From a virus: a DNA stretch of 64,000 nucleotides. The notes under the pieces are model-generated. The model was not told where the DNA came from, searched no databases, and saw only the letters and a list, made by a program, of their open reading frames with translations. This document shows positions 1 to 52,523 of the stretch, piece after piece. Both the position numbers and the translations under genes were made by a program. The stretch spans positions 1 to 64,000 of IMG/VR virus record IMGVR_UViG_3300025646_000024; one strand, 5' to 3'. Each line of letters opens with the position of its first letter. Within the stretch, counting starts at the first letter, position 1.

Positions 1-52
1 TTTGGTCGTACTCAATTAGATGTGAGTGGTTTTGATGTTGAAGAGATGACCG

Positions 53-1125
53 ATGAAGACAAAGAAGAATGGAAGGACTTCTGGGAGAATGACGATGACT
101 GAACGAGCACAAGAACTACGAGAGATTATCCGTCAGGCACTCTACCGAACTCCTATGACCGAAGAGTGTGAAGTTCCTATTACCGCTTCTGCTTTGAGGT
201 ATGTTGCTGACCGACTCTATACTGACTGGGGAGAACTTCAACACCCAGCATCAGTCATTCATGATATTGCTAATGAATTGGAGGATGATGAACTATGACT
301 GATTATTATGATTTTTTTGTTCCAGAGAACAAGTTTATTGTTCCTGTGACTGTTCTTCTTTCTAATGCTGACCAAGTAAAACTACGAAAGTTCATCAACC
401 TCCATTATCTTGGTGATGAGGATGCTAATGAGTTTGTAGATGGAACTTACAAAGCAAAGTATCCAGAGAAAGAAACCACAGAGTTTCAGAATGCAGTATG
501 GAAAACTAATGTTGGTTATACAGTAAATCTTGCTGTAGAGTTTGATGAGAAAGGTGTCCCTACATTTGAGGTTGTGAAAAATGAATAATCAAGAAGAAAT
601 AGGATGGGCATTACCAGTAGGATTTGTCATCATTAATATTATTGCTATTATTCTTGCTTTAACAGGAAATCTACCAGACGGAGTTTGATTGTGGTTGAGA
701 AAATTAAGTTTGTTAGTGTAACACGCACTATTTGTCCTAAAACAGGAATTCATTATTTGGATGCCATCGGGGAGGATGGTTTCCATTATATGGCACAAAT
801 GGTTCATAATATCAATAGTGATGAACCCTGGTTATTGTACAAGAAAGTGTGGTATAAAGACCCTCAACACCCCTACGATATTTGATGGAGAAACCAAATG
901 AAATTTAATAATGAAGCACTGATTGCTCTGTGTATTATGTCTGGATTTACTCTTATCCTTGCTACCATATTTTCTGGGCTTTCTACTGAAGCACAAAAAC
1001 AAAGTTTGTATCAGAAAACCTACGACAAATCTATGGAATGTCGTATTACTTTCAAAGGTAGAAGTCCAACAGAAGTAAATTCTTATTGTGGTGAAATTCC
1101 TAAACTTGAGGATTTTTTGAAGTAG
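53..1125 (+). CDS. Run of short hypothetical phage proteins (ORFs 53-298, 295-588, 685-885, 898-1125)
   Basis: Abutting or overlapping + strand ORFs with no recognisable motif; some ORF-track starts are probably too far upstream. Confidence 0.6.
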
Positions 1126-1133
1126 TATAAATA
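1126..1133 (+). promoter_or_regulatory. T4-type late promoter TATAAATA, putatively driving a small RNA
   Basis: Exact TATAAATA directly after the stop of 898-1125. Confidence 0.75.
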
Positions 1134-1137
1134 CTAA

Positions 1138-1198
1138 TGTCTGTTGGTACTGCAATTCTCTACAGACAAGATTAGGTGCTCTTTTGGGCACCTTTTCT
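1138..1198 (+). ncRNA. Putative ~60-nt small RNA (hairpin plus terminator), antisense to the leader of the downstream HNH gene
   Basis: Stem TGTCTGT(1138-44)/ACAGACA(1162-68); terminator-like hairpin AGGTGCTC-TTTT-GGGCACCT(1174-93) plus T-run; 1140-1154 is complementary to 1213-1227. Confidence 0.55.
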
Positions 1199-1200
1199 AT

Positions 1201-1208
1201 TATAAATA
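1201..1208 (+). promoter_or_regulatory. T4-type late promoter TATAAATA of the HNH endonuclease
   Basis: Exact consensus ending 25 nt before ATG 1234. Confidence 0.8.
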
Positions 1209-1233
1209 ATAATGCAGTACCAATAGAATATAA

Positions 1234-1944
1234 ATGAACTATCTAAAGATATATTGTAACCTTATAAGGAAAGCAGAGAACAGAACTCCTCCTGAAGGTT
1301 ATACAGAAAAACACCATACATTTCCAGTAAGTATCTTTGGAAAAAATAATAGAATTGTAGTGCTTACGGCAAGAGAACATTATGTTGCACACGCACTATT
1401 GGAAAAAATTTGTATTCAAAGATATGGATTGCATCATTATAGAACTAAAAAAATGAATAACGCACATATAATGATAAAATCTAGTGGTTATTGTAACTCT
1501 TATCTATACGAAACTGCTAAAATTAGAAGAAGTGAAAATATGAGGAGAAATCTTCATAGATTAGGTACGAGGCATACAGAAGAAACCAAAAAAATATTAA
1601 GTGAAAAACATAAAGGCAAAACTCATTCAAAAGAAAGTAATGAAAGTAGAAGCAAAAAACTGACAGGAAAAAATAATCATAACTATGGAAAAAGGTGGTG
1701 GAACGATGGAAATGGAAATGAAGTTTTCTCTATTGATTGCCCCCAAAACTGGATTCCTGGTCGCAATGAAGAGGCAAAGAAAATAAGCACAGAAACAAAT
1801 ATAGGTAGAAAATGGTGGAATGATGGCAATGGTAATACTAAATTTTGTAGAGAGTGTCCTGGGAACGGATGGGTCCCTGGAGTGAGTGAAGAAAGAAGAA
1901 AAAATATAAGTAAATCAATGAAAAATTTATCTAAAAAAACTTGA
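1234..1944 (+). CDS. Free-standing HNH homing endonuclease with NUMOD3-like DNA-binding repeats
   Basis: EKHHTFP...N.VVLTAREHYVAH HNH core; HTEETKKILS and HSKES motifs; duplicated G(K/R)(R/K)WWNDGNGN repeat. Confidence 0.85.
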   Translation: MNYLKIYCNLIRKAENRTPPEGYTEKHHTFPVSIFGKNNRIVVLTAREHYVAHALLEKICIQRYGLHHYRTKKMNNAHIMIKSSGYCNSYLYETAKIRRSENMRRNLHRLGTRHTEETKKILSEKHKGKTHSKESNESRSKKLTGKNNHNYGKRWWNDGNGNEVFSIDCPQNWIPGRNEEAKKISTETNIGRKWWNDGNGNTKFCRECPGNGWVPGVSEERRKNISKSMKNLSKKT

Positions 1945-1963
1945 ATGGAAATAATATGTTGCT

Positions 1964-2019
1964 CCACTTTGTAAACTGTCACACTAGCACTTGCGGGTTT
2001 CTTCCTAATCCGTTATGAT
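1964..2019 (+). promoter_or_regulatory. Sigma70-type promoter with upstream box A
   Basis: CCACTTTGTAAACTGTCACA (1964-83), TTGCGG (1991-96), 17 bp, TATGAT (2014-19); the next gene probably starts at ATG 2042. Confidence 0.7.
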
Positions 2020-2041
2020 ACTCCTATCTACAAGAAACATT

Positions 2042-5000
2042 ATGCGTTTGACCGCACACGAACTCGCAGTTATTATTGATACACTCAACCATTCTCTAAT
2101 GGTATCAAACTGGAATGGATATTATACTGCCCAATCAAGGGAAAATGTAAGGAATACGATTGCTGTGATTATGAATGAAATGAGTGTAGAGATTATCACA
2201 GACAAACCAAACTTCACTATTGATGCTGACGCAGGTATTTAAAATGACTGACATAAAACTCTGTAAGGATTGTAAGCACTACAAGAAAGATTGGTATGCT
2301 CGTATCACTGGATATGGAGACACATTTGATATTTGCGTCAATCCTCATTTGATTGCTGTAAATCCTGTGAGTGGAAAGACCAAAGGTGATTTTTGTGATA
2401 CAATGAGAAAGTATCACGGATGTGGTATGGAAGGTAAGTATTGGGAGGCACGAAAATGAGCAAATCTGAAACATTCCTCATTATCTCACAGATTTATTGT
2501 GTAGGTGATCTTATTGTTGAAGGTAAAAAAACATTTTTATATGGTGTGGGATGAAAGAACTTGAAATAGGTTCTAAATGGAAACATAAGACCTCAAATGA
2601 TGTTTATGTTGTGAAAGAACAGTATTCTCATAGAGTAGTGTTAGAGCACGAACTTACTGGTGAAACTGTAAAACTAACTGTGGGACATTTTAACCCTCAA
2701 GGTTTTGATGAGTATGAGTATTATGAAACTAACTAAACTAATCTTTGATTATAAGTGGTATTATTTGAGGACACTTGAAGAACTGGCACAGGGAGACCCC
2801 ACAAGGTCTCCTATTGCCTTATAATACTCTCGTACACACAAAGGAACATTTTATGGACGATTGGATGCTTGAGTTACGAACTGTTGAGTTAGAGAAGGAT
2901 GTTATATGTGAGACAACTTATCGTAAAATTATTTCCCACGACAACTTTGATTACGATGAACACCTCGTTGATGACAAAATTAGGATGAATTATTTCTGAT
3001 GACTAAAACACAGGTGTTTCAAATTTCTTGGTTTATCATGAAATATGGATTTTTAATTTATGTTTCTTGTCTTTTACTGAACTTGGGTGTCATTATTCCA
3101 TCAATTCTTATTTGGGGTTTTGTTTTTGTTGATTTGGGGTATGAATTTTTAAGAATGGTTGAGTATTATCAACCAACAAACCGTGAGAAAGTAAAATGAC
3201 TGAATACCTGAAACTACGCTAATGCCATTCTTTCCTGATTGCTATGACGAATGGGGTCTTTATAAGATTACCTACGATGGAGACCACAAGATGTATGAAA
3301 TGCTATTTGAGGGCACGGAAGAAGAGTGCCGTGAGTATGCTTATGAGAACTACACAGATAAGGAGCAAGGTGAAATGTGCCTGATGGATTATGAAGCAAG
3401 GGAATGGGATGTATGACTAAAGACGAACTCAAGAATTTTGATCCATCAACCGTACAATACTACCAAGTAGCATACAAATGTAACTTTGCCACAGATCCAC
3501 AAGAGTATCGCACACAAAATCATGGTACAATGAGTATGGCACTTGCTTCTGCTCACTTGCTTCATGCACGAGGACAGTTCACTATTATCTCTGTAACACC
3601 AATCTACAAATGACTGAACGCAACTTTAAAAAAGAACTTTCTCACTCCGTCTATTATGATATGGAGAATGGGAATGATAGTGAAACAATTGATTATGATT
3701 GTCTGATTGCTATTATTACTGAATTGTGTGATAGAATAGAACAGTTGGAGAAGGACAACGAACTTCTGAAATCTTATGCTTGGGAACAATGACTGAGCAC
3801 AATTTACCAGATAAAGATGATGCTCCGTGGTTGGATACAACCTATGATGGTTTTATGACCCATGGGGAAATGTTAGAAGTTGCTGCTCAACGAGAAGCAG
3901 AAAACAAAGCACTTGAAGCATTAGACAAACTCCATGAGGAAAATGGTGAAGGTATGAAACAACTTGCCGAACACGAAAGGATCAAAGTCATTCAAACTGC
4001 TTGTGGTGCCATTGACAAATATTCTGATGCACTTAAAGCACTTGCTGAAACTGAAAAGGTAGAGTTGCGAGCAGAATTGGAAGCAAAGAAGAAAGAAAAC
4101 TTTCAGCTGGTTGCTGATGCTTGTATGGTAGAATATGAACAGAAGTATCAGCGTGATGTATTCCCAGTGGATGAATACTGGGTGTATATGATTTCTGAAT
4201 ACTTTGGCACAGGTGAAGGTCAAACTACCTGTATTATGATGACACAGGCAACACCATATGGTGATGACTTCACAGAAGAAAATCGCTATGTGCCTATCAA
4301 CTCTAAGCAGTATCGTGCTGTAAGGGAGTTTCACAAACAGTTTGGCACTTGGTATCTCCATGGTCTGAAGTTCCTCAGTAAAGAAGATTTCTTTGCTGAA
4401 TGTTCATATTACATCCCACCTGTGATGATGAAACTCTCTAATAAGAGTTGCTTCAAAGATTTCTACACCCGTGTTCATTACAATTTCTCATGACAAAAAT
4501 CAAATTCAGCGGTCACTCCAAAACAGAACGTGAAGTCGAATTCACTCAAGCAGATAAACATCGTCTGTTTGAACTGATGAAAGAAGAATTCATCGATCAC
4601 ATCACATACTCCAGGTTCAGTAACATCTATCATCCCACAAAAACTGAAAAACAAATCATGGAATTATGTAAAGATTTCGACGTTGATGTAGCATATGATA
4701 AAGATCGTGTAGCATTTTTTACTGAAGTAATTAACAACATGGAGAATACTTATGGATAAAGAACTTTACAACCCTGATGAGTTTCTGCTTGACAACATCA
4801 AATCATTTCACTACGAGGTGATGGATGAAGGTGAGCATGTATGGATGGCATTCTATTTTGAGAATGGTAACACTGGGCACTTGAATATCTTCCGAAACTG
4901 TGGTAAGATTAACACACGCTATGAGGAATGGGTAAATGACGTACAAACTAAATGAGGAAGCAACAGCATTTTCATATACTCGTGAAGAACTCTTTGAGTG

Positions 5001-5459
5001 TATCACTAGAATCGTAGCACATCCACATAAGACCATCACAGAACACGACCAATCCCGTGCTCTTGCCATCATGGTAGTGTTTGACGACTATTTCACCAAT
5101 TATACTCAAAGTGATAATAATGGTGGGCATTGTGTTTATGAATGTGATGCTATGGACTTTATTGATTTTGTGAGGTTTAAACTTGGTATCAGTGATTATG
5201 ATGCTGTTGATGTTGATGAGGTTTTGAAATGAAACCAACTGAAGCTGGATTTGATGGAGAAAAGGGTGTGAACCTTAATATGTCACATCTACCCGATGGA
5301 GGAATATATAAACTGCGACGTGGCTCTACTCCTCCATGGACATTCAAGGCTAATTTTAAAAATCAGTTAATGTGGCAAGAAATAATACCACCTAGACTTT
5401 TATATTGTAACTCAGATAACCAGTGGTTTGAACTAGATTTTATTCCTATAGAAACATGA
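2042..5459 (+). CDS. Cluster of about 13 short hypothetical proteins (incl. Cys-rich ORF ending 2459 and 237-aa 3780-4493)
   Basis: Tightly packed + strand ORFs, many with ATGA stop/start overlaps; no function recognisable. Confidence 0.6.
2771..2825 (+). promoter_or_regulatory. Promoter with box A and TATAAT -10
   Basis: ACACTTGAAGAACTGGCACA (2771-90), hairpin GGAGACC/GGTCTCC over the -35 zone, TATAAT (2820-25); gene likely starts at ATG 2853. Confidence 0.7.
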
Positions 5460-5809
5460 TTCCTCTCATAAACAAGTGGATAATCGGATTTAAACCGATT
5501 AAGTATACTCCTTTCTGGTATTGGTATCGTCTATTATGTCATCAGGGGTATCGTCTTGATGACAGACATTTGTATGCAGACTTCTGGTATGAATTGAACT
5601 ATGGTTGGTGGACTATGGAGTATGATGCTTTCATCAATGGCCCAGGTACAGAAGAAGCTATGATGGGTATAAGTTCTCCTGATGACCTTCCAGAGACCAT
5701 CTACTTGACAGAAGAAGCTTTTGACTCTATGATGGAGAAGATCAATAATCCAGATCCACCCACACCATTTCTACGACAACTATTATCTCGACCTGCACCC
5801 TGGAATTAA
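5456..5809 (+). CDS. Hypothetical protein with DUF1778/TacA-antitoxin-like C-terminus
   Basis: C-terminal IYLTEEAFDSMMEKINNPDPPTPFLRQLL resembles the I.L..E.F..F...L.NPP.P...L..L tail of DUF1778 antitoxins. Confidence 0.45.
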   Translation: MIPLINKWIIGFKPIKYTPFWYWYRLLCHQGYRLDDRHLYADFWYELNYGWWTMEYDAFINGPGTEEAMMGISSPDDLPETIYLTEEAFDSMMEKINNPDPPTPFLRQLLSRPAPWN

Positions 5810-5813
5810 AATT

Positions 5814-6237
5814 ATGAAACTTACAAAAACACACTTTTGCCTTCCTGAATTTTATACAGCAGATGATGAATCTCCCAACTATAAAGAAGAGTATTTGAAA
5901 AATTGTGAAGAACATGTAATTGCAGTAGCAAAATCTTGTTATTTGATTTCAGATACTACGATTGGCAGTGATTTACTTGATGAATTTGAACACATTTCTG
6001 AACTGAAAAGTATCATTCACGACCTAGGTAAGTACATTGGTAAGAGGTTCTATGAAAGTTAAAACCCGTGTTATTTTAGAACAAGCAATTGAGGAAGGCG
6101 TGAATCGTGGTTGGCGTCTTGCTCACAAATATACAGAAAATCCTGAAGAACATGTAATCATTGACCGTATCAATGATGCAGTAATGGCTCAAATCTACGA
6201 ATACTTTTCTTTTGAAGATGAACTACACATTTCCTGA
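5814..6237 (+). CDS. Two short hypothetical proteins (5814-6062 and about 6052-6237)
   Basis: Overlapping ORFs leading into the RNA ligase. Confidence 0.6.
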
Positions 6238-7381
6238 AATTACTCACCTTGATAATGTGATCCCTCACATTGAGGATCGTCCTGAGTTCAAAGTGATGGA
6301 CAAAGGTTGGTACACTGTTATCAACTACATGGTTGCATTTGGGGATACATTCTCACTCATTCGTGAACGTTCTCATTACAATATGTGGGTGCGTCGTGAA
6401 TGTCGTGGTCTTATCTTTGATAATGCAACTGGCCAACTTATTTCTCGGCCATATCACAAGTTCTTCAATGTAGGTGAACGAGAAGAAACTCAGATTGACA
6501 AACTAAATCTGAGTGCTTCACATATAGTTCTGGAGAAGTTGGATGGTTCGATGATTCGCCCCATTCCAACTCCAGAAGGATTCCGTCTTGGCACAAAGGC
6601 AGGTATCACTGATGTCGCAATGAATGCAGAAGTATTCATTGGAGATAAACCACAATACAATACTTTCATTCTTGCAATGATTGAAGGTGGTATGACTCCT
6701 ATTTTTGAGTGGGTTTCAAGAAAAAATCGTATTGTAGTTGATTATCCAAAGGACCAGCTGATTCTCACTGGCATTCGCAATCTTGTAAAGGGTAACTATC
6801 TACCATACTTTAACATGGTAGAACTTGCAGTACATTATGATATTCCTTATGTGAAAGCATTTTCTGGAAGTGTACCTATTGATGAAGATTTAATCAATGC
6901 AATACGTGCATGGGATGATGGTGAGGGTGTAGTGATTCGCTTTGATAATGGTCATATGGTCAAAGTCAAAGCTGATGAATATATTCTTCGACATCGCTCT
7001 AAAGAACAAATCAACTCAGAAAAGAATATCATTCAGGTTATTCTGAATGATACAGTGGATGATATGATTCCACTGCTCACAGAAGATGATGCAACTCGTC
7101 TACGAAAGTTCCAGTCTGAGTTCTGGAGTGCAGTTGATGAAGTGGCACAAGACCTTACCAGCATCTTTGAAGGTGGTGATAAGATGTATCCAGACAAGAA
7201 GGAGTTTGCCGTTGAGTTTGTAAACCGAATGCTTCTGCCCATTCATCGCCCATTCATGTTTGGCATGAAGCAGGGTAAAGAATGTAAACAACTCTTGATT
7301 GATTCAATCGAAAAGTCTCTCACTTCTCAAACCAAACTAAACGATTCACGCTGGATGTTCGGAGGTATTTCATGGAACTGA
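6218..7381 (+). CDS. rnlA: RNA ligase 1 (T4 Rnl1 family)
   Basis: RECRGLIFD and SRPYHKFFN Rnl1 signatures; adenylation motif EKLDGS; EGVV (motif IV); KVK (motif V); ATG 6218 preferred to TTG 6212. Confidence 0.92.
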   Translation: MNYTFPEITHLDNVIPHIEDRPEFKVMDKGWYTVINYMVAFGDTFSLIRERSHYNMWVRRECRGLIFDNATGQLISRPYHKFFNVGEREETQIDKLNLSASHIVLEKLDGSMIRPIPTPEGFRLGTKAGITDVAMNAEVFIGDKPQYNTFILAMIEGGMTPIFEWVSRKNRIVVDYPKDQLILTGIRNLVKGNYLPYFNMVELAVHYDIPYVKAFSGSVPIDEDLINAIRAWDDGEGVVIRFDNGHMVKVKADEYILRHRSKEQINSEKNIIQVILNDTVDDMIPLLTEDDATRLRKFQSEFWSAVDEVAQDLTSIFEGGDKMYPDKKEFAVEFVNRMLLPIHRPFMFGMKQGKECKQLLIDSIEKSLTSQTKLNDSRWMFGGISWN

Positions 7382-7872
7382 TTATGATGTGTGGCATTCC
7401 TTGTGCTGGCAAATCGAGCTACATTCGCAGGGGAACTGAAAACACTGATGTGTTTGATGAATATGTAATCCTATCTACAGATGATTACATTGAAGAGTAT
7501 GCCAAAGCAAATGGCAAGACTTACAATGAAGTCTTTGATGATGTCATTGGTGAAGCTACCACACGCATGTATCAAGACCTTGAGCTTGCAATCCAGCGAG
7601 GCAAATCTATTATCTGGGATCAGACTAATGTATCAAAGAAGTCTCGTATGAAGAAACTAAAGAAGATTCCTGATACTTATACTAAGACTGCAGTAGTTCT
7701 TCCTATTACTCTAGAGGAAGCTATTATTCGCAATTCTCAACGAGCAAACAAGTTTATTGCACGTTCTGTATTATCTCGTATGTATCATCAATTTGAAATT
7801 CCAACTGAAGATGAAGGTTTTGATGTTATCATGACTCATGATGGATCGCATCTTAAACTGCAGGTAGCCTGA
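7372..7872 (+). CDS. P-loop kinase (AAA_33; equivalent to the 5'-kinase half of T4 PNK/PseT)
   Basis: GIPCAGKS Walker A, ILSTDD, IIWDQTN, RNSQR lid motif. Confidence 0.85.
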   Translation: MELIMMCGIPCAGKSSYIRRGTENTDVFDEYVILSTDDYIEEYAKANGKTYNEVFDDVIGEATTRMYQDLELAIQRGKSIIWDQTNVSKKSRMKKLKKIPDTYTKTAVVLPITLEEAIIRNSQRANKFIARSVLSRMYHQFEIPTEDEGFDVIMTHDGSHLKLQVA

Positions 7873-8252
7873 TGATTTCTGACTCGGTGTTTGACCAGGC
7901 TATTGCAACTGCAAAGTCTTCTCCATCTAAAAAGCAAGTTGGTGCTCTTCTATTGAGGAGAAATAAAATTATTACAACTGCAGTTAATCTTGAAACTAAG
8001 TCTCATCCACTCCAAGCTAAGTTTGCTGAACGAGTAGGACTTTGGCAAAAAATATATTTACATAGTGAGATTCATGCATTAATTAAATGTAAAGAACCCG
8101 TAGATACTATTGTCGTTGCAAGAGTAAATCCTCAAAATAAATTACGAAATGCAAAACCATGTCCTATATGTTCACTTGCTATCGAAGAATCGGGCATTAA
8201 CCACATATATTATTCAACTGATGATGGATTTATGTACAAATACAAAGCATAA
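7872..8252 (+). CDS. Zn-dependent cytidine/deoxycytidylate deaminase-fold protein
   Basis: VGA, HSE and PCPIC zinc-binding motifs. Confidence 0.85.
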   Translation: MISDSVFDQAIATAKSSPSKKQVGALLLRRNKIITTAVNLETKSHPLQAKFAERVGLWQKIYLHSEIHALIKCKEPVDTIVVARVNPQNKLRNAKPCPICSLAIEESGINHIYYSTDDGFMYKYKA

Positions 8253-8259
8253 ATATAAA

Positions 8260-8314
8260 TGCCTGAGTTGGGTGCAATCTTCGCAGGTAAAGAAGGAGCT
8301 TTATGCTCCTTCTT
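8260..8314 (+). ncRNA. Putative ~55-nt small RNA antisense to the leader of the downstream GIY-YIG gene
   Basis: CATAAATA (8248-55) upstream; stem TGCCTG(8260-65)/CAGGTA(8284-89); hairpin AAGAAGGAGC/GCTCCTTCTT (8290-8314); 8264-8276 is complementary to 8331-8343. Confidence 0.55.
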
Positions 8315-8318
8315 CTAG

Positions 8319-8326
8319 TATAAATA
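8319..8326 (+). promoter_or_regulatory. T4-type late promoter TATAAATA of the GIY-YIG endonuclease
   Basis: Exact consensus ending 26 nt before ATG 8353. Confidence 0.8.
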
Positions 8327-8352
8327 TTACTGCACCCAACTTAAGAGCAGTT

Positions 8353-9042
8353 ATGTATTCTCCAAGAATATACACATATAAAATTACCTTTGAAGAGGTT
8401 CCGTACTACTATTATGGAATGCATGAAGAAAAGGTATATGATGAACCATATTGGGGTTCCCCAGTAACAAATAAATGGTGCTGGAATTTTTATACGCCAA
8501 AGAAACAAATATTGGAAGTATTTTCTACTAGAGAAGATGCATATAAAGTAGAAATGCGATTAATCAAATCAGTTTTAAATGTTGATAAATGGTGCCTCAA
8601 TATGAATTGTGGAGGGATTATTTCTCGTGAAATTTATGTTAAAACTGGTACAATGACTTATGAACTTGGGATAGGAATACATGCACAATCACCAAAGGAG
8701 CGCAAAGAGGTAGCAAAACTTGGAGGTAAAATGTCTAAATCTTTGGGAGTAGGTGTGCATGGCAGAACAGATAGTCAGATGACTTTAGATGCAAAAAAAT
8801 CTGTAGAAACTCATCGAAAAAACAATACAGGATGTTTTGATTCAAACCATTCGTTGCAAAGAAAAGGAGGAATCATTCAAGGAAAAAAGAATGTTTCAAA
8901 TGGACATTTGCAACAATTATCAAAATTAAAATATATTTGTTTAGAAACTGGATTTATATCAAGTGCCAGAGGATTATCTGTATATCAAAAAAATAGAGGA
9001 ATTTGTACTACCAAAAGAAAGCTATTAGATATGCCAATATAA
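8353..9042 (+). CDS. Free-standing GIY-YIG (Seg-like) homing endonuclease
   Basis: YTYKIT...YYYGMH...YWGS, AYKVE, CLN catalytic-domain pattern; true start ATG 8353 rather than 8149, because the extension crosses two promoters and a terminator. Confidence 0.75.
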   Translation: MYSPRIYTYKITFEEVPYYYYGMHEEKVYDEPYWGSPVTNKWCWNFYTPKKQILEVFSTREDAYKVEMRLIKSVLNVDKWCLNMNCGGIISREIYVKTGTMTYELGIGIHAQSPKERKEVAKLGGKMSKSLGVGVHGRTDSQMTLDAKKSVETHRKNNTGCFDSNHSLQRKGGIIQGKKNVSNGHLQQLSKLKYICLETGFISSARGLSVYQKNRGICTTKRKLLDMPI

Positions 9043-9089
9043 TATCTGTCTATTGAATACTTGACACGCCCATGAATATATGCTATGAT
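9034..9089 (+). promoter_or_regulatory. Sigma70-type promoter with degenerate box A
   Basis: TTGACA (9061-66), 17 bp, TATGAT (9084-89); CCAATATAATATCTGTC upstream. Confidence 0.75.
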
Positions 9090-9114
9090 GCTATTTGATA
9101 TCAACTCACAAATC

Positions 9115-9588
9115 ATGGATTCCTCTACGAATACTCATAAACTTAAGTGCATCATTTTCGACCTTGATGGCACTCTATGCGATGTGACACATCGTAGACA
9201 ATTTGTTGCAACTAAGCCTCGTAACTGGGATGCATGGAACAAAGGAATCATCAATGATAACCCTGTAGAACAAGTTCTTGCAATGTTCAATGCATTGAAG
9301 TATTTGTATCCTATATTTTTCGTGAGTGGCCGCTCTGATGATTACCGTGATGTAACTGTAGAATGGCTTGAGAAACATGGTATCACACCATATGATCATA
9401 ATGGCTTGTATATGAGAAAGTATCAAGATCATCGTGATGATGCTATCGTCAAAGCAGAGATTGCTGATGAGATCGAGAAACAGTATCAAATCTTTGCAGT
9501 CTTTGATGATCGGAAGCGGGTATTGACAATGTGGCAGCAGCGTGGTATATTTACTTTTGATGTCTCCCAAGGTAAAGGTGATTTCTGA
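9115..9588 (+). CDS. HAD-family phosphatase (equivalent to the 3'-phosphatase half of T4 PNK/PseT)
   Basis: DLDGT, VSGR, MRK..DHRDD, FDDR motifs; start moved to ATG 9115 because 9085 lies in the -10 box. Confidence 0.88.
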   Translation: MDSSTNTHKLKCIIFDLDGTLCDVTHRRQFVATKPRNWDAWNKGIINDNPVEQVLAMFNALKYLYPIFFVSGRSDDYRDVTVEWLEKHGITPYDHNGLYMRKYQDHRDDAIVKAEIADEIEKQYQIFAVFDDRKRVLTMWQQRGIFTFDVSQGKGDF

Positions 9589-11050
9589 TGGGACTATTTG
9601 ACCGAGTTCGTTGTTCATATCCAATCAACGAACACTTCAATAATAACATGCTCCAAACTAAAGGACTATCAAATTCTTTAGCTGAATACTGGATTAGTCC
9701 TGCAGGAGAGTTATTTGAGATTGATGATTATGAAGCTGCAGATTTTGTGGAAGTTGATGATGAAGACCTGCGACCATGGGAGAAATTTCAGTGGGTTCCT
9801 AATGGAAATCATGGTAAAGTCAAGCCAGTATATATCACTGATTGCATAGAGGTCTATCCAGAGCAGAATCCAAATGCAAAATGGGAATGCTGGCCACGAT
9901 GCAGTATATGCTTTAAATTAGGTAAGATTACACACGTTGAAATACTTAGATGAGTGAATTTCCATACGAGGGGTTTCCATACAGGCTAGAATACACTGAT
10001 GGAAAGGATGAAAAAATTTGTTGGTTTATGTGCGAAGAGCATCTTCAAAAATATATTGATAGATACAAACCAACAAATGCAAGTATTCAAACAATCAAAC
10101 AAAACCAGAAGAAACAACAACTTTTCTCTGATCTAGACACATTCTTTACACCAGATGAAACACCTGTGGCACCTGTGGGCACTCGCACTCGGAGAAAAAG
10201 CTCACAAAAAAGATCAAGTAGCTGATAAGGTTGCCATTGTGCGTACCCTTATTTTCACTACATATCTTATACCAAACTGCTTTATTGTTGCTGGTGTTAT
10301 TCGACACTGGAATGATAGAGAAATTAACGTTGAGGTTGAAATCTATGAAAATTCAAACTATGCAGAAAAGCTTTACTCAGAAAGACGGGACTATCTGGGA
10401 ATGGACGGAGACACCCGAATTGAGGGAGTATATTCGTCAGGCACAATCAAGAACCGCACTGGAGAATTTGAATGAAGGACCAAAACGAGCATCCTGAAAT
10501 TGCAGAGGTTGATTGGATTGATGACACATTCCGTGTTGAAGAATCTCGCTGGAAAACTTGGAAGAGTTTTCATAAGAATGGGGACTCACTTATTACTTCT
10601 CTCACAAGGGAATCTTGCATCTCTGCAACCAGATTCATCCTCAAAGGTAGACAAGAAGGTTTTTCAGAAAGTAAACTTTACGAAGGGGTGGTAGGTGGAA
10701 AACTCTAACGATGTTCCAGTCCACGTACTGGACCCAACGACTCCCTGGTACGAGTTTCTGTCCTATACTGAATGCTGTTGGAGCCTGAAGCCGCCAGGCC
10801 ACCCATCACTCACACGATTCATGCGGTATCATGATTATCTCAAAGAGGTTGGTCTCAAATGAATGAATTCACAATTACTTCAGGCACAGCAAACAAATAC
10901 ACAGACGCAGAACTTGATGCAATGTGTCTGTATTCAGAGAATCTGGAATTGAAACGACAGCTCCAGATTCTTGAAGAACAAAATCTAAAACTCAAGAATG
11001 AACTTCTTGAACTCTCTGCACAAATGGAAGGTATGATTTATGAAGACTGA
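9588..11050 (+). CDS. Cluster of short hypothetical proteins (9588-9953, 9950-10225, 10155-10475, about 10345-10497, 10472-10708, 10695-10862, 10859-11050)
   Basis: Overlapping + strand ORFs; 10695-10862 (GTG start, 55 aa) is below the ORF-track cutoff. Confidence 0.6.
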
Positions 11051-11450
11051 TCGCAATGGTTTTATTGACCCTGCTGCTATTCTGATTGTTGGTGGCATCG
11101 CTGTTATTGGTGCTGTCCTATTCATCGGTGGTCCTATCTACGGGGTGTGGCAGCAATCTCTTGCTGGTAAAGCAGAACTGCAAAAGGCAGAATATACTCG
11201 TCAGGTAGCAGTGCTTGAAGCACAAGCAAAGATGGATTCTGCACAGAAACTAGCTGAAGCAGAGATTATTCGTGCTGGTGGTGTTGCAAAAGCAAACCAG
11301 ATTATTGGTGATTCGCTGAAAGATAATCGTGAGTATCTTCAGTATCTGTATATCACTGGCATTGAAGAAGGCTCACAGAAAGGTAATGTAACCATCTACG
11401 TACCAACAGAAGGCGGAATGCCAGTTCCAACACTTCAAATGAATAAGTGA
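11040..11450 (+). CDS. Membrane-anchored coiled-coil protein resembling the C-terminal part of SPFH/band-7 proteins
   Basis: N-terminal hydrophobic helix then AEAEIIRAGGVAKANQII...YLQYLYI...IYVPT. Confidence 0.6.
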   Translation: MKTDRNGFIDPAAILIVGGIAVIGAVLFIGGPIYGVWQQSLAGKAELQKAEYTRQVAVLEAQAKMDSAQKLAEAEIIRAGGVAKANQIIGDSLKDNREYLQYLYITGIEEGSQKGNVTIYVPTEGGMPVPTLQMNK

Positions 11451-11456
11451 TTCTGT

Positions 11457-11479
11457 GGGGGCTACAAGCCCCCTTTTTT
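11457..11479 (+). terminator. Rho-independent terminator
   Basis: GGGGGCT-ACA-AGCCCCC followed by T6. Confidence 0.85.
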
Positions 11480-11486
11480 ATAAATA
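11479..11486 (+). promoter_or_regulatory. T4-type late promoter TATAAATA
   Basis: Exact consensus ending 22 nt before ATG 11509. Confidence 0.85.
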
Positions 11487-11508
11487 CTTAAAAATAATCA
11501 GCTGATCA

Positions 11509-12150
11509 ATGTACGAAATAATCAGAGAAAAAGACGAAGTAGAAATTGGCTCTAAGACTGGTGGGTTAGTTCCAAAGAAAAAAAGAAGTCCAGCTAATCA
11601 ATATAAGTATGAAAAAGAAAGAAGAGAAAATTTAAAGAAGAAACCAGGAATGACTGGTGATAGTCCATTGATTCAAGCACTTCGTAGAAGAGCACAAGTC
11701 ACTGGAAACTATGCAGAAAGCAAATCGTATTCTCAGTTCCTTGAAGAAGCATTTAAGAGAACAGGTAAAACAATAGGTTTCAAGGTATTTCATCATGGAT
11801 CTGATGCAGACTCAGTTAAAAGCATAAAGAAAGGTGGACCCAAACCATCACCAAAGGGAAGTGAAGGTCCAGGGCATTATGTTACTCCAGATAAAAAGAA
11901 AGCAGACAAATATGCAGAGTTTACTTCTAAACAGAGAAAGAAAAAGCCAGCAACAGTATCATACAGAGTACCAAGCAAAAGAGTAGCTAAAACAGATACT
12001 ATTCCAAAGGGACTGACATCACAGCAAAGAACAACAAAGGAAAAGCCAGTCATTCAAAATACTAGAACTGGTCATGTTGCCATGGATGCAGATTATGCAA
12101 ATTCAAAAATGATACGTAATCCATCACCAACTATTCGTAAAAGAAAGTAA
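11509..12150 (+). CDS. Basic late protein with internal capsid-targeting-like motif and ADP-ribosyltransferase-like domain
   Basis: SKSYSQFLEEA, then VFHHGS...SIKKGG...GPGHYVT....A.KYA (H-G-S/T, G-x-Y, A..YA pattern of H-Y-type ARTs). Confidence 0.6.
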   Translation: MYEIIREKDEVEIGSKTGGLVPKKKRSPANQYKYEKERRENLKKKPGMTGDSPLIQALRRRAQVTGNYAESKSYSQFLEEAFKRTGKTIGFKVFHHGSDADSVKSIKKGGPKPSPKGSEGPGHYVTPDKKKADKYAEFTSKQRKKKPATVSYRVPSKRVAKTDTIPKGLTSQQRTTKEKPVIQNTRTGHVAMDADYANSKMIRNPSPTIRKRK

Positions 12151-27765: not shown

Positions 27766-30700
27766 ATGTCTAATTGTAGTCCAAAGAAAGACCCTGTAGA
27801 TAAGAAGCTTACTTTTACATATACAGAGTGCCCTGCACCAGAAGAAGGATCACCAGCTCAGATTACTATAGAGTTTCCATATATTGAAAAGTACTGGTAC
27901 GAAGTTAGGCCGCCTGATGCAGCAAACAAGACCATCCAAAATGGAAGCAAGCAACAAAAGCTTCGTCGATCTGTAATTCAAGTACCTGCTGTTGATGCAG
28001 AGAATGCAGATGGAGATAATGTAAACTTTGTTGATCAGGTATTTTATCAACCAGAATATGAGATTGTTGGTTCTGGTGATGACATTAAAAGTAAGCCAGT
28101 ATATGAAAGATTCTGTAAGGCAGATAAAGTATACGACGAGCAATACTTCTACCATATCTTTGAATGGCCATTAACACATACTCTTCCTGCACGACCTGTG
28201 GGAGGTATTACTGTAACTACTCCACCACCTCCTCCACCAGGATCTGAGGGTGGAGAAGAGAGTTGTCCAGTTTATGCAGTATCCAGTACCAGCGTCGGTG
28301 GTACATTTACACTCAATAGAGTAGACAGTCAAGTAATTGGCCTACCTGAGGGAAGCGTTGCTTACCATGGAGGTACACTCGATAATAAGATATTCTTTTA
28401 CTATGAGAATACCACCAATAAAGATATGATTGCTGTTGGTGATGTCATTAATGGCTGGACAGTTGATAAAGTAGTTAACTATAACTCTGAGCACTTTGAC
28501 GAGAAATCTTTAAGAACCACAGAGTCCGTTAGAAGAAGAGTCTCTAAGTTTTCTGAGAAGAACAAGACTCCTGGGTTTATCTTTATCAACAAAAACGACG
28601 GTGCAGAAGATAGAATTATCAACGTCGGGGACTTAGTGACTGGCTATGGTATTCAGAAGGACACTTATGTAGATAGTATTCAAGGACTTAAGATCTTTCT
28701 TACTAGACCTTTAAAGTACAAAAACAAGAGAAGAGTTAGAAACGTCAGGTTTACTAACACTGGTCTTGCTAATAACATCTCAAACCAGATTCTTTGCTAT
28801 GCAGAAATTAGTGGTGGCAGTGCTGCATTCATTAAAGACCAGTACTATTCAAAAGATACCCCCTCAACTCCCCAGTATACAAGTACGATTTACCATGTTT
28901 TTGACGACAAAAAGAACAAAAACATACAACTGACCACAACCAAGGAAATAAAGGTTCAAACTATCAATAGAAACGACGAAGGTGGGTCAAATGATAGTGA
29001 TAACAGAAAGCACTACTTAGTGACTTTCTTGGATGAAACTACAATTAGCAATAAAAGTGATGTGCAAATTTCTATTACTGATGATAGGACTGCATCAGGA
29101 GTAGAACAATCTTTTGTATTTGCTTCTAAAATTGAAGTTGTAGACAGTAAAAGTTTCAAAGTATGGTTCAAGAGAAATGATAACAAGGTTAACACTTATG
29201 TTCGTGGATGGAATGTAACCAGAGTTCCAGGTGGAGCAGTCATTCCTGAAAATAGAATTCAAGTGATTGCTGGTAGAGGCATCATAGACAGGTCTGCAGT
29301 CTGTGGTGTTTATGTCAGTAATGATAAAAAGTTCTATACTTATACTCCTTTATTCTATTCTAGAGATGGATTCTGCGAATCTACTTACCTAGAAGATGAC
29401 CTAGGTAAATTTGCACTTGGTAGTGTTATTCTAAACGATAAAAGTTATTACTTACAACAACAGTTTTTATGTGTTGGACCTGCAAATGACACTGCATACC
29501 AAATCAATAACATTTTTTGGACCTATTTTAACAGGCCATCCGAGATTAATGAACTAAAAACTTGGATAAGTCGCTTAGCTTCTTCTGATTTTCTTACTAT
29601 TCAAAAGGAAATTATAGATTCTGAGAAGTTAAAACTCGGACAAAGAACTATTTTAGCAGTTAAAGACTCCGAATGTGACAGCACTATCAATCCAGACTAC
29701 TCAAAAGTCTATTATCCACACAGTGAATTCAATACTTTTAATGAATATATTGCTCCTGTTCAAAATGATAGTGTATTTGACCCATGTATTGACGTAAAAA
29801 CACCTAAAACTTACAGTAAAGAAGAGTTAGACTCTATAATTACGACAAATCTTGGTGGTAGTTTTCACTTTTCTAGTATCAATTTACCTGAGGAGATGTA
29901 TAAACAGGTGATTTCTAATGAAAATTCACTTCAAAATACCCTACTGAGAGCAATTACTGCTATTGGTAGTTCTGTTCCAAAGCAAACTACCATCCCAAAT
30001 CTACCTCCACTCATTGAAGGAGAGGATAAATCCAGTCAAGTGTTTAGAACTGAGGCTGCATATCGCATTCCACCAAGATTTAAGTCACTTGAATACATTA
30101 TTGAAGACTTTAGTTTCGTCAGTGATTCAAGTCTCTTCCCAGATTCAGATGAAAACAACACTGAAATACAAATTAAGTCTATTCCTAAGTGGACTGGAAG
30201 TGTTTCTCCAGCAAGTGGGGATGGTTGGCAAGCAAATGTCAATACTGATGGAGAAGGTTTCATTAACACAGTAACTATTTCTGCAGTTCCATTCCCTGCT
30301 CCACCACTAGGTGGAAGTACTACTGCATGGGCTGCTGGGCCAGCTCCTACTACATTCTGGCATGGGGATGATACTAACTACCAAGTTACATTTAAAAAGA
30401 TCTTAAACTTTAGAGTTAACGAAGTTAGTAAGAACCTTTCTAATGCAGTCAAGAACAAAGGTAATCCATTTATGGATGAACCTCCATATGCAAAGCTAGT
30501 TCAAGATCTAAAACCAACTGATACTACAATCAAAGTAGACAGTACTAGCCAATTTATCTCTGCAGGATATTTAATTATTCCAAAATATATCGTCAAAAAA
30601 GAAGTAAATCCAGAAACTAGGAATGAAACCCCATATCATTATTACCTAGGTGAAGAAATTATCTATTACAGAGATAAAACAGAAACAGAGTTTCTGCAAT

Positions 30701-50771: not shown

Positions 50772-52523
50772 ATGGCAACAATTATTAAAATTAAAAGATC
50801 TTCTGGAACTAGTCAACCAAACCTTGGTCAAGGTGAATTAGGTTATTCCTGGGGTGCTGGAACTTACACAGACGCACAAAATGCCACAGTATCATCTTAT
50901 GGTAAGATGTACTTGGGTACTGGTACTGAAACTAGTGGAATTGCGGCAAACATAGAAGTTATTGGTGGTAAGTATTTCACCGATATGCTTGACCATGGAC
51001 ATGGTATATTAACAGCAAACTCAGCAGTTATTGTTGATTCTGCGAGTAAAATTAATGTTTGGAATGTAGATAATTTAAGCCTAGATGCAAATACAATTTC
51101 ATCTACTGATACAGATGGAGACATTGTAATTGACCCAAATGGTACTGGGGAAATTGTTGTTCCAGATGATACATATTTAACTTTTGGTACAAGTAAGGAT
51201 ACTAAAATTAAATATGACGAAGCTACTGACGATAGACTAGAAGTAACTGGTGCTGATTGGAATTTTGCATCTGGTGTTGCAATCAGTGTTAGTGATAGTA
51301 CTGCATCCACAGATACAACTTCTGGAGCTTTTGTTGTATCTGGTGGAGTTGGTATTGGAGGAAATCTAAATGTAGGTGGTTCCTTAAATTCTGGATCTTT
51401 AACTGTAATTGATTTTACAGCTTCTGGAGATTTAACAGTTCAAGGTGGAGATATTAATGTAATTGCAACCGCAACAAATATTAATATTAAAGATAATACT
51501 CCTAGTGCTCTTGCAATTAAAGAAGGTACTAATGAATATATTAAAATTGACACTACAGATGGTTTTGAATTAATTACATTAGGAACTTCAAATGTTGTTA
51601 TTTCTAATGATTTGTCAGTTAATGGTGGAGATCTTACAACAAATCAAACTACATTTAATCTATTAAATGCAACTGCTACTACAGTAAATGCATTTGGTGC
51701 TGCAACCACTATTAACATTGGTACTTCTGCAACTACTACAGACTTTGGTGATTTAAAAATTAATGGATCTACTATTTTTGGAGATGAAAATGGTCAAACT
51801 ATTACCCTTGATCCTTATCCTGCTGGTGGAGACGCTGGTGGTGATGTCGTTGTCAGGGGTAACTTTAAGGTAACTGGTACTACAACTACGGTAAATTCTA
51901 CCGTAATGACAGTAAATGATCCAATCTTTACCTTAGGTGATGCTATCAGTGAAAAGGTACTAAAAAATTCTGCATCTAATGGTGCAACTACACTAACACT
52001 TGATAATACAACAGGTTTAAACACTGGCGATATTATCACTGGAGATGCAAATATTCCTGCAAATACTACAATTACAGTAGATAATGCAACACAAGTAACA
52101 TTAAGTGCTGCATTGACAGGTGGGATTGCAGCTGGAACTACTCTGACCTTCACTCAAGGTGCAGATGATAACATGGATCGTGGTATTGAATACAGATACT
52201 ACAACGGAAGCCTTAAGACTGGATTCTTTGGTTATGATGAATCTGGAATCTCTGAGGATGTAACCACATATTATTTCACATATATTCCAGATGCAACAAA
52301 TAGTGGAAACGTATTTACTGGAACAAGAGGTAGTGCATACTTCAAGACTGTAAAGCTTGATGATGGTGTTCTAAATGGTGTTGCATTCTTTGATCAGTAT
52401 AAGAGACTAACTAGAACAGTAGCAGCAGGAACTTCTGATGCAACTACTTCTAATCAAATTTTAACTGTAGATGGATCTGGAGTTCCTGTTTGGACTACAA
52501 CTCTTGACGGTGGAACCTACTGA
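50772..52523 (+). CDS. Tail fibre-like structural protein
   Basis: MATIIKIKRS..GEL.Y, GAFVVSGGVGIGGNLNVGG, GN..V.GTTTTVNS, C-terminal DGGTY. Confidence 0.75.
   Translation: MATIIKIKRSSGTSQPNLGQGELGYSWGAGTYTDAQNATVSSYGKMYLGTGTETSGIAANIEVIGGKYFTDMLDHGHGILTANSAVIVDSASKINVWNVDNLSLDANTISSTDTDGDIVIDPNGTGEIVVPDDTYLTFGTSKDTKIKYDEATDDRLEVTGADWNFASGVAISVSDSTASTDTTSGAFVVSGGVGIGGNLNVGGSLNSGSLTVIDFTASGDLTVQGGDINVIATATNINIKDNTPSALAIKEGTNEYIKIDTTDGFELITLGTSNVVISNDLSVNGGDLTTNQTTFNLLNATATTVNAFGAATTINIGTSATTTDFGDLKINGSTIFGDENGQTITLDPYPAGGDAGGDVVVRGNFKVTGTTTTVNSTVMTVNDPIFTLGDAISEKVLKNSASNGATTLTLDNTTGLNTGDIITGDANIPANTTITVDNATQVTLSAALTGGIAAGTTLTFTQGADDNMDRGIEYRYYNGSLKTGFFGYDESGISEDVTTYYFTYIPDATNSGNVFTGTRGSAYFKTVKLDDGVLNGVAFFDQYKRLTRTVAAGTSDATTSNQILTVDGSGVPVWTTTLDGGTY

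Follow-up and report, generated by a model that had tools for sequence, protein, structure and literature searches.

In the first 64,000 nucleotides (nt) of IMG/VR virus record IMGVR_UViG_3300025646_000024 (the window), two homing endonuclease genes are each preceded by a compact control module of approximately 105 nt in which two late-promoter-like boxes, the two arms of an inverted repeat and a terminator-like hairpin follow one another in the same order. A first-pass annotation, made from the letters alone, had placed such a module at 1126–1233, and direct reading of 900–1500 re-found each of its elements base for base. Copy 1, which like copy 2 lies on the + strand, begins with the upstream late-promoter box TATAAATA (P1, 1126–1133), which abuts the TAG stop codon of the open reading frame (ORF) at 898–1125 and has a predicted start near G1139. 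Four nucleotides after P1 lies a 5′ hairpin (1138–1168), formed by the stem TGTCTG (1138–1143) with CAGACA (1163–1168); it appears in the fold of the predicted short RNA, and its 19-nt loop (1144–1162) displays the variable portion of the 5′ arm, or seed, TCTGTTGGTACTGCA (1140–1154). Next come an intrinsic-terminator-like hairpin (1174–1193, with a T-run to 1196), which has a GC-rich stem and a TTTT loop and was flagged by a terminator scan, and a second late-promoter box, TATAAATA (P2, 1201–1208), inside the long-range helix and with a predicted start near G1214. The 3′ arm TGCAGTACCAATAGA (1213–1227) starts 4 nt after P2, stops 6 nt short of the ATG at 1234, makes up the first approximately 14 nt of the predicted P2 leader and spans a purine-rich AGA resembling a Shine–Dalgarno sequence. 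The 15-nt complementarity between 1140–1154 and 1213–1227, with one G:U pair, was recovered by a complement scan.

The annotation had also described a recurrence of this architecture before a second nuclease gene, with another seed and a matching target, and reading of 8050–8600 confirmed it at 8248–8352. Here P1, CATAAATA (8248–8255), overlaps the TAA stop codon (8250–8252) of the dCMP deaminase gene and is followed by a 5′ hairpin (8261–8288; stem 8261–8265 with 8284–8288) containing the 5′ arm (8264–8276). A terminator-like 10-bp hairpin with a U-rich 3′ side, recognized by sequence and fold (8290–8314), P2 with the sequence TATAAATA (8319–8326) and the 3′ arm TGCACCCAACTTA (8331–8343), which forms 13 bp with 8264–8276, including one G:U pair, complete the module before the ATG at 8353. 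A small ORF in the 5′ unit (ATG 1137 in copy 1, ATG 8259 in copy 2) was considered and rejected: the ATG precedes the predicted start and is missing in most homologues.

The gene behind copy 1 (1234–1944, +) encodes a 236-amino acid (aa) HNH-type, MobB-like homing endonuclease (PHROG 655 ‘homing endonuclease’, E 7.5e-30), and its tblastn matches are MobB-like HNH genes of T4-like phages. The gene behind copy 2 (8353–9042, +) encodes a 229-aa protein matching PHROG 314 ‘homing endonuclease’ (E 1.3e-12), and its relatives in the phages S-SRM01 and B3 and in IMG/VR contigs, at 43–49% identity, bear the same module. Thus, of the two nuclease types first assigned, HNH stood, on the PHROG 655 and MobB-like matches, and GIY-YIG was retained for the second gene as an N-terminal motif only: searches of this protein against Pfam, NCBIfam and PDB sequences gave no GIY-YIG match, and its AlphaFold model (pLDDT 52, low confidence) retrieved GIY-YIG domains in Foldseek solely at E > 5. 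The two nucleases were also said to be unrelated, and BLASTP between them detects no similarity (E = 3.3).

The complement scan covered all 80,263 nt of the contig; a match required a TAAATA box and, 2–8 nt after it, a complement of at least 10 bp to sequence 16–120 nt upstream of the box. On the + strand of the whole contig, the two window copies were the only matches. On the minus strand, around 30553–30678, a 12-bp arm pair with one G:U follows a TAAATA box; it is unmatched by the covariance model described below. Rfam covariance models run against window positions 1–12000 at E ≤ 1 gave no match at the module, and one irrelevant snoRNA model matched elsewhere.

Folding predicted distinct structures for the RNAs that could arise from each module. 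In the full-length RNAs the arm helix closes around the terminator hairpin (−41.3 kcal/mol for copy 1 and −44.3 kcal/mol for copy 2; z = −7.5 and −6.8), with 0 of 200 shuffles folding as well. In this minimum-energy fold the arm helix, of 15 bp in copy 1 and 13 bp in copy 2, covers approximately −21 to −7 before the ATG, leaving the AUG itself outside, and merely a weak AGA or GAG at the helix edge resembles a Shine–Dalgarno sequence. In both copies, therefore, the predicted helix lies over the translation-initiation region, and TATAAATA, with its predicted start, lies between the arms, 4 nt before the 3′ arm, which are two of the features of a T4-type mask. RNAs running from P1 to the terminator instead fold into two hairpins (z = −5.7 and −3.7), and the P2 leader alone is essentially open (−0.5 kcal/mol in copy 1, −4.4 in copy 2). 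Both cassettes are co-oriented with the flanking early-type genes, and the terminator-like hairpin sits between the arms.

The same layout was first spotted by eye before homologous genes of S-SRM01 and B3 and in IMG/VR contigs. A covariance model of the arms and terminator, R1, was built from eleven modules, both window copies included, and its search yielded 51 distinct modules in related phage contigs, S-SRM01 and B3; a metagenome scan added approximately 33 more, one of them identical to the window. S-SRM01 has six copies (for example, NC_070963.1 48433–48538 and 55959–56061), B3 three, one 136-kb contig nine and another contig six, and three lie within 13 kb of a third; R1 found none in marine S-PM2. 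Each of the 51 runs up to the start codon of an ORF of nuclease type, with at least five N-terminal types represented: 21 HNH (MNYLKIY), 14 GIY-YIG (YTYAYL), at least seven GIY-YIG (PRIYxYKI), several other GIY-YIG-like N-termini and one EndoVII-like, many of these proteins carrying NUMOD3 repeats. An identical head with an identical seed occurs in two contigs (L004, L095), followed in one by an HNH gene and in the other by a GIY-YIG gene; the head is therefore exchangeable between nucleases. These results bear out the proposal of a portable cassette common to unrelated nuclease families.

We observed two further variations on this design. Within one 136-kb contig, the heads of L079 and L082, before an HNH and a GIY-YIG-like gene, differ by a single compensatory arm pair (seed G to T, leader C to A). 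A second scaffold (L025:1024–1118, L232, L236 and L061, the last at S-SRM01 77559–77665) consists of one long hairpin of the GTGGG…CCCAC type whose apical loop holds a 10–12-nt seed; after the hairpin come TATAAATA and then a complementary leader abutting the ATG. It has a TAAATA-like box upstream, and a U-run is present in L061 and not clear in L025 and L232.

Seed–target covariation detected through a covariance model had been named as the check on the original idea, and it was found. Scored on 39 distinct rows of an alignment fitted to R1, 94.3% of arm cells are paired in this model-guided alignment, compared with 66.3% after shuffling and 38–49% with a slid partner; compensatory changes are seen in 13 of the 15 arm pairs, and all five terminator pairs are altered on both sides. 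An alignment-free comparison gave the same picture: cognate seed–leader duplexes average −22.0 kcal/mol against −9.0 kcal/mol (s.d. 3.9) for 2,550 non-cognate combinations, and its own seed is the best partner for 48 of the 51 leaders. Where the arm helix wobbles, the 5′ arm supplies the G and the leader supplies the U (one pair does so in 20 of 39 rows), a single orientation that fits + strand RNA and argues against a DNA element. Pairing of seed and leader as + strand RNA is thus kept by selection, and complementarity maintained by compensatory change is also what a trans-acting antisense RNA would display. Non-cognate duplexes are as weak within one genome (−7 to −9 kcal/mol) as they are between genomes, and this comparison does not separate cis from trans pairing.

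The local 5′ hairpin is conserved as well. It was predicted in all 22 modules folded first and then in 51 of 51, and its pairing reaches 84.6%, against 76% for shuffled and 18–44% for slid partners, in an alignment that was not fitted to this hairpin; four of its five stem pairs have changed on both sides, as from TGTCTG/CAGACA to TATCTG/CAGATA. The loop holds the variable seed, and the stem holds the constant part. Because the local hairpin and the long-range helix share 4–5 nt, the two structures are mutually exclusive.

Two natural chimeric heads (L014/L096:304–408, and L247, upstream of its match) join a 5′ unit and a leader of different seed types. Their cognate duplexes reach just about −6 kcal/mol, with the crossover falling inside the conserved GGTGC…GCACC terminator. 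The chimeras show that recombination shuffles the halves of the head, and their nucleases should be unmasked in cis. No seed matching the chimeric leader of L014 was found in its 13-kb contig, which represents 6% of a genome.

The annotation had further suggested that the 5′ arm possesses its own promoter and terminator. As predicted elements, both belong invariably to the cassette: all 51 modules have them, and endonuclease-free alleles lack them. In each of the 51 modules exactly 4 nt separate the TAAATA of P1 from the 5′ hairpin, which begins at the predicted +1 or +2. Of the P1 8-mers, 34 read NATAAATA and 17 read NCTAAATA; P2 is TATAAATA, a sequence that T4 also reads, in 47 of 51. The terminator hairpin, GC-rich and with a U-run, is likewise present in 51 of 51 (median −14.5 kcal/mol), and the predicted short RNA, measured up to the P2 box, spans 50–80 nt (median 59). 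A motif of the NATAAATA type has been reported as the late-promoter motif of cyanomyoviruses (PMC2984593). The contig has 21 NATAAATA sites on the + strand and two on the − strand, and outside the modules the motif lies 10–53 nt before ORFs that include baseplate wedge, tail sheath and tail-fibre assembly protein genes. A ‘T-purine’ start context is common to P1 and P2 but is not general in the late promoters of this phage, and it does not count as evidence for initiation.

Comparison with endonuclease-free alleles defined the borders of the cassettes. At the copy 2 site, in L104–L107, the deaminase gene directly overlaps the phosphatase gene; at the copy 1 site, in L169–L172, the flanking genes overlap in ATGA; neither allele has a TAAATA. 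This excluded P1 as an older late promoter of the insertion site and, because the P1 box, hairpin and terminator are all missing from these alleles, indicates that P1 travels with the cassette. The alleles accordingly define insertions at approximately 1123–2041 and 8253–9113, P1 included, both among early-type genes. We conclude that the whole head, with P1, moves with the nuclease as a portable, endonuclease-specific unit, and that it is a real and conserved control head of homing-endonuclease cassettes that elaborates the T4-type mask.

At their 3′ ends many cassettes carry a predicted promoter for the neighbouring gene. The tail of cassette 1 (1945–2041, +), delimited by comparison with L169–L172 and followed by the native start ATG 2042, contains a weak sigma70-like pair that may act as a promoter, TTGCGG (1991–1996) and, 17 nt on, TATGAT (2014–2019). 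Cassette 2 ends with a near-consensus sigma70-type promoter, TTGACA-17-TATGAT (9061–9089, +), a predicted early restart. Across the family, a promoter scoring at least 10 of 12 occurs just past the nuclease stop codon in 18 of 45 cassettes, against 1 of 45 control windows. With the terminator in the head and the early promoter behind the nuclease, the cassette would both stop and restart surrounding transcription, in the manner of the PeSL elements discussed below. Post-nuclease promoters are often built on a common scaffold of TTGAAA, a GGTGCC-containing spacer and TATAAT.

We propose, with about even confidence, that each copy heads a mobile and self-contained homing-endonuclease cassette that combines a cis mask with a trans antisense RNA. 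Such a cassette would comprise, in order, P1, the seed-bearing 5′ hairpin, the terminator, P2, the seed-complementary leader, the nuclease gene and often an early promoter for the neighbouring gene. Transcripts arriving from upstream would mostly end at the terminator, and those that read through would fold the 13–15-bp helix over −21 to −7 of the nuclease start, blocking translation by the logic of T4 I-TevI and gene e. Late in infection, P2 would yield a short, unstructured and translatable leader. At the same time, P1 and the terminator would yield an RNA of approximately 58–62 nt, composed of the seed-presenting 5′ hairpin and the terminator hairpin; having no partner in cis, this RNA would pair in trans with the first approximately 14 nt of the P2 mRNA and limit the nuclease dose. 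The cis mask and the open late leader appear well supported by analogy with T4 and by the anatomy of the module, and the discrete approximately 60-nt RNA acting in trans is plausible but unproven.

The strongest alternative, less probable than the combined scheme but still to be taken seriously, is that the module acts in cis only: a T4-type helix would hide the start codon on transcripts from upstream of P2, the terminator would insulate, and P1 would be non-working or its product functionless. Experiments have established that logic for T4 e, soc, 49, I-TevI, I-TevII, I-TevIII and segB and for Aeh1 mobE (PMC3014915, PMC2988022), and it was proposed earlier for TATAAATA-enclosing hairpins with complementary motifs before cyanophage-like endonucleases (PMC2677866). 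It agrees with the formation of the mask in the full-length fold, with a P1 that is sub-consensus in one third of the copies and with a related scaffold that hides its seed in one long hairpin (L025/L232, L061). A purely cis-acting mask leaves unexplained, however, why an invariant TAAATA at a fixed 4-nt offset (51 of 51) is brought into early-gene regions, and why a local hairpin that competes with the mask is conserved, and it is because the cis model gives neither of them a role that we infer a trans-acting RNA. Moreover, with a strong terminator directly before P2, few upstream transcripts would hold both arms; most 5′ arms would reside on RNAs without the 3′ arm, and a partner would be possible solely in trans.

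Several observations weigh against the trans-acting part of the proposal. P1 is less canonical than P2 (NCTAAATA in 17 modules, compared with a P2 that is TATAAATA in 47 of 51) and could for that reason be a weak promoter or have a different function. Classical antisense RNAs have loops far smaller than the 16–19 nt seen here, the arm ends 6–10 nt short of the AUG with no strong Shine–Dalgarno sequence visible, and the covariation is explained by a cis mask alone, as in T4. Co-expressing a repressor with its target seems wasteful unless it tunes dose, and the natural chimeras with mismatched arms (L014/L096, L247) imply that the pairing is not indispensable. Metagenome contig ends show no pile-up at either predicted start and hold no transcript-start signal. 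With these points considered, we suggest only tentatively, at somewhat less than even confidence, that the 5′ unit is a late approximately 60-nt trans antisense RNA. T4-like phages would then have their first functional class of trans-acting regulatory small RNAs. The seeds of this RNA would be naturally re-programmable, selfish nuclease cassettes would carry it to render themselves harmless wherever they land, and in phages with up to nine cassettes it would form a set of mutually orthogonal RNA–target pairs.

The two conserved and overlapping helices could also be read as a two-state leader, in which the 5′ arm toggles between the local hairpin (open) and the long-range helix (closed) under a temperature, protein or ribosome-traffic signal. 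Although both alternative helices are conserved with 4–5 nt in common, we regard this as improbable: the closed state is much the stabler (−41 kcal/mol versus about −24 kcal/mol for the parts), apart from GCAA the loop has no conserved ligand- or protein-binding motif, and the terminator would eliminate most such transcripts. Least probable of all, and in our view very unlikely, is a DNA-level element, with the inverted repeat and twin boxes serving recombination and shuffling as in PeSL (PMC2839356, PMC4122927) or forming a nuclease-bound operator such as the one I-TevI binds over its own late promoter in autorepression (PMC2988022): the chimeras with their crossover in the conserved terminator (L014/L096, L247) and the same head and seed before different nuclease families (L004, L095) would suit it, but strict base-pair covariation with G:U in one orientation only points to + strand RNA and disfavours a cruciform or operator, the head is common to unrelated nucleases of differing DNA specificity, and shuffling accounts for the spread of the head and not for the kept complementarity.

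The proposal that each copy combines a cis mask with an antisense RNA extends a known form of control. A masking hairpin with an internal late promoter has been described for T4 I-TevI and gene e and for mobE of Aeromonas phage Aeh1 (PMC3014915, PMC2988022). As in those cases, the module has an upstream RNA segment that pairs with the initiation region of an early-silent gene, carries TATAAATA between the arms and is linked to homing endonucleases. It differs in having a terminator within the helix, a second late box 4 nt before the 5′ arm, a hairpin of the 5′ arm itself and portability over at least five nuclease types, none of which is described for the T4 cases in the two reviews (PMC3014915, PMC2988022).

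The closest precedent comes from environmental cyanophage-like DNA. Dassa et al. (2009; NAR 37:2560, PMC2677866) reported 5′ untranslated hairpins at 15 of 16 free-standing endonuclease genes in ‘fractured gene’ loci; ten of the hairpins enclose TATAAATA, two conserved motifs are mutually complementary, and the samples include freshwater Lake Gatun. They were interpreted only as cis translational hairpins, and the section consulted mentions no upstream promoter, terminator or separate RNA. Matched by description and not by sequence, their element is very probably the same as the present module or its sister. The core of the finding, a masking hairpin before cyanophage-like endonucleases, is to that extent already in print (PMC2677866). 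What is new, relative to the two reviews and the section consulted of that report, is the constant upstream promoter and terminator that define a candidate antisense RNA of approximately 60 nt (PMC2677866, PMC3014915, PMC2988022).

PeSL are composite cassettes of a terminator and an early sigma70 promoter that lie between genes of T4-like phages, travel and mediate shuffling (Arbiol 2010, Comeau 2014; PMC2839356, PMC4122927). Whereas PeSL have an early sigma70 promoter and no seed–target pairing, the head of the module has late boxes and a covarying RNA helix. The combination of stem-loop and early sigma70 promoter that marks a PeSL does not occur in the head, which has two late-type boxes and no sigma70 pair; an early-type promoter appears only at the 3′ end of many cassettes.

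A known small RNA tied to a homing endonuclease gene of a T4-like cyanophage is CfrI of S-PM2 (Millard et al. 2010, as cited in PMC2984593), an antisense RNA of approximately 225 nt that, according to the citing text, runs on the opposite strand across psbA and F-CphI. CfrI shares with the candidate RNA its association with such a gene, here F-CphI, and differs in lying on the opposite strand and in a phage, S-PM2, that is without the present module. The psbA-linked F-CphI gene in S-PM2 (L077:285–360) and its S-SRM01 counterpart (209740–209852) have before them only an early-type −10, then a terminator hairpin and then TATAAATA; the arms and the upstream box are both missing. This F-CphI-type head has the appearance of a simplified relative of the module.

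In type I toxin–antitoxin pairs such as tisB/istR-1 and zor/orz, a short RNA made of a hairpin and a terminator is encoded beside its target, is complementary to the 5′ leader and pairs in a locus-specific manner. The first-pass annotation had called the module type-I-antitoxin-like. The term serves as an analogy of mechanism and not as a statement of membership: the targets are 236- and 229-aa nucleases and not a small membrane-active peptide, so we do not file the module as a type I toxin–antitoxin system. In contrast to those pairs, the candidate RNA lies in tandem with its target on the same strand, and the pairing arises from an inverted repeat.

Homing endonucleases need near-silence to persist in a phage, and the cassette shows how a selfish gene could bring a full insulation kit with it: a transcription stop, a lock made of RNA, a late promoter, perhaps also an antisense RNA, and often a restart promoter for the neighbouring gene. 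Should the short RNA exist and act in trans, it would fill a stated gap, and the family would constitute a natural library of dozens of orthogonal seed–target pairs on one scaffold; if it is not real, the module is still a well-documented elaboration of the textbook T4 control. Weak model matches in complete genomes, considered as possible orphan 5′ units or trans partners, were generic terminator and late-promoter sites or the variant scaffold only.

The window belongs to a freshwater T4-like cyanophage: the genes around the cassettes are of T4 type and include RNA ligase 1, polynucleotide kinase, dCMP deaminase and a Pnk phosphatase domain, and the closest cultured relatives of both nucleases are found in the freshwater Kyanoviridae S-SRM01 (grown on Synechococcus sp. 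KCZYC6), B3 and B23. A T4 PseT-like polynucleotide kinase is split here into a kinase gene (7372–7872) and a phosphatase gene (9115–9588), with the dCMP deaminase gene (7872–8252) between them. Insertion of cassette 2 split a 26-nt overlap of the deaminase and phosphatase genes that is now doubled: 8225–8252 has been recoded (…GFMYKYKA*), and the second copy of the deaminase-end/phosphatase-start overlap at 9114–9140 (+), located by by-eye alignment with L104–L107, is nearly original. The true phosphatase start is probably ATG 9115, which matches the endonuclease-free alleles, and the ORF-finder start at 9085 is probably wrong.

For annotation, the module marks the true start codons of endonuclease genes that have been mis-called in S-SRM01 and B3. 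Four gene annotations in the public records are probably in error: NC_070963.1 62515–63273 (gp114), 51291–51992 (gp075) and 192466–193167 (gp297), and MN695334.1 41539–42162 (gp45). Among them, two ‘translation initiation factor 2’ genes are probably NUMOD3-bearing GIY-YIG-type endonucleases, and two endonuclease coding sequences probably have their starts annotated inside the module, upstream of the start codon that it marks.

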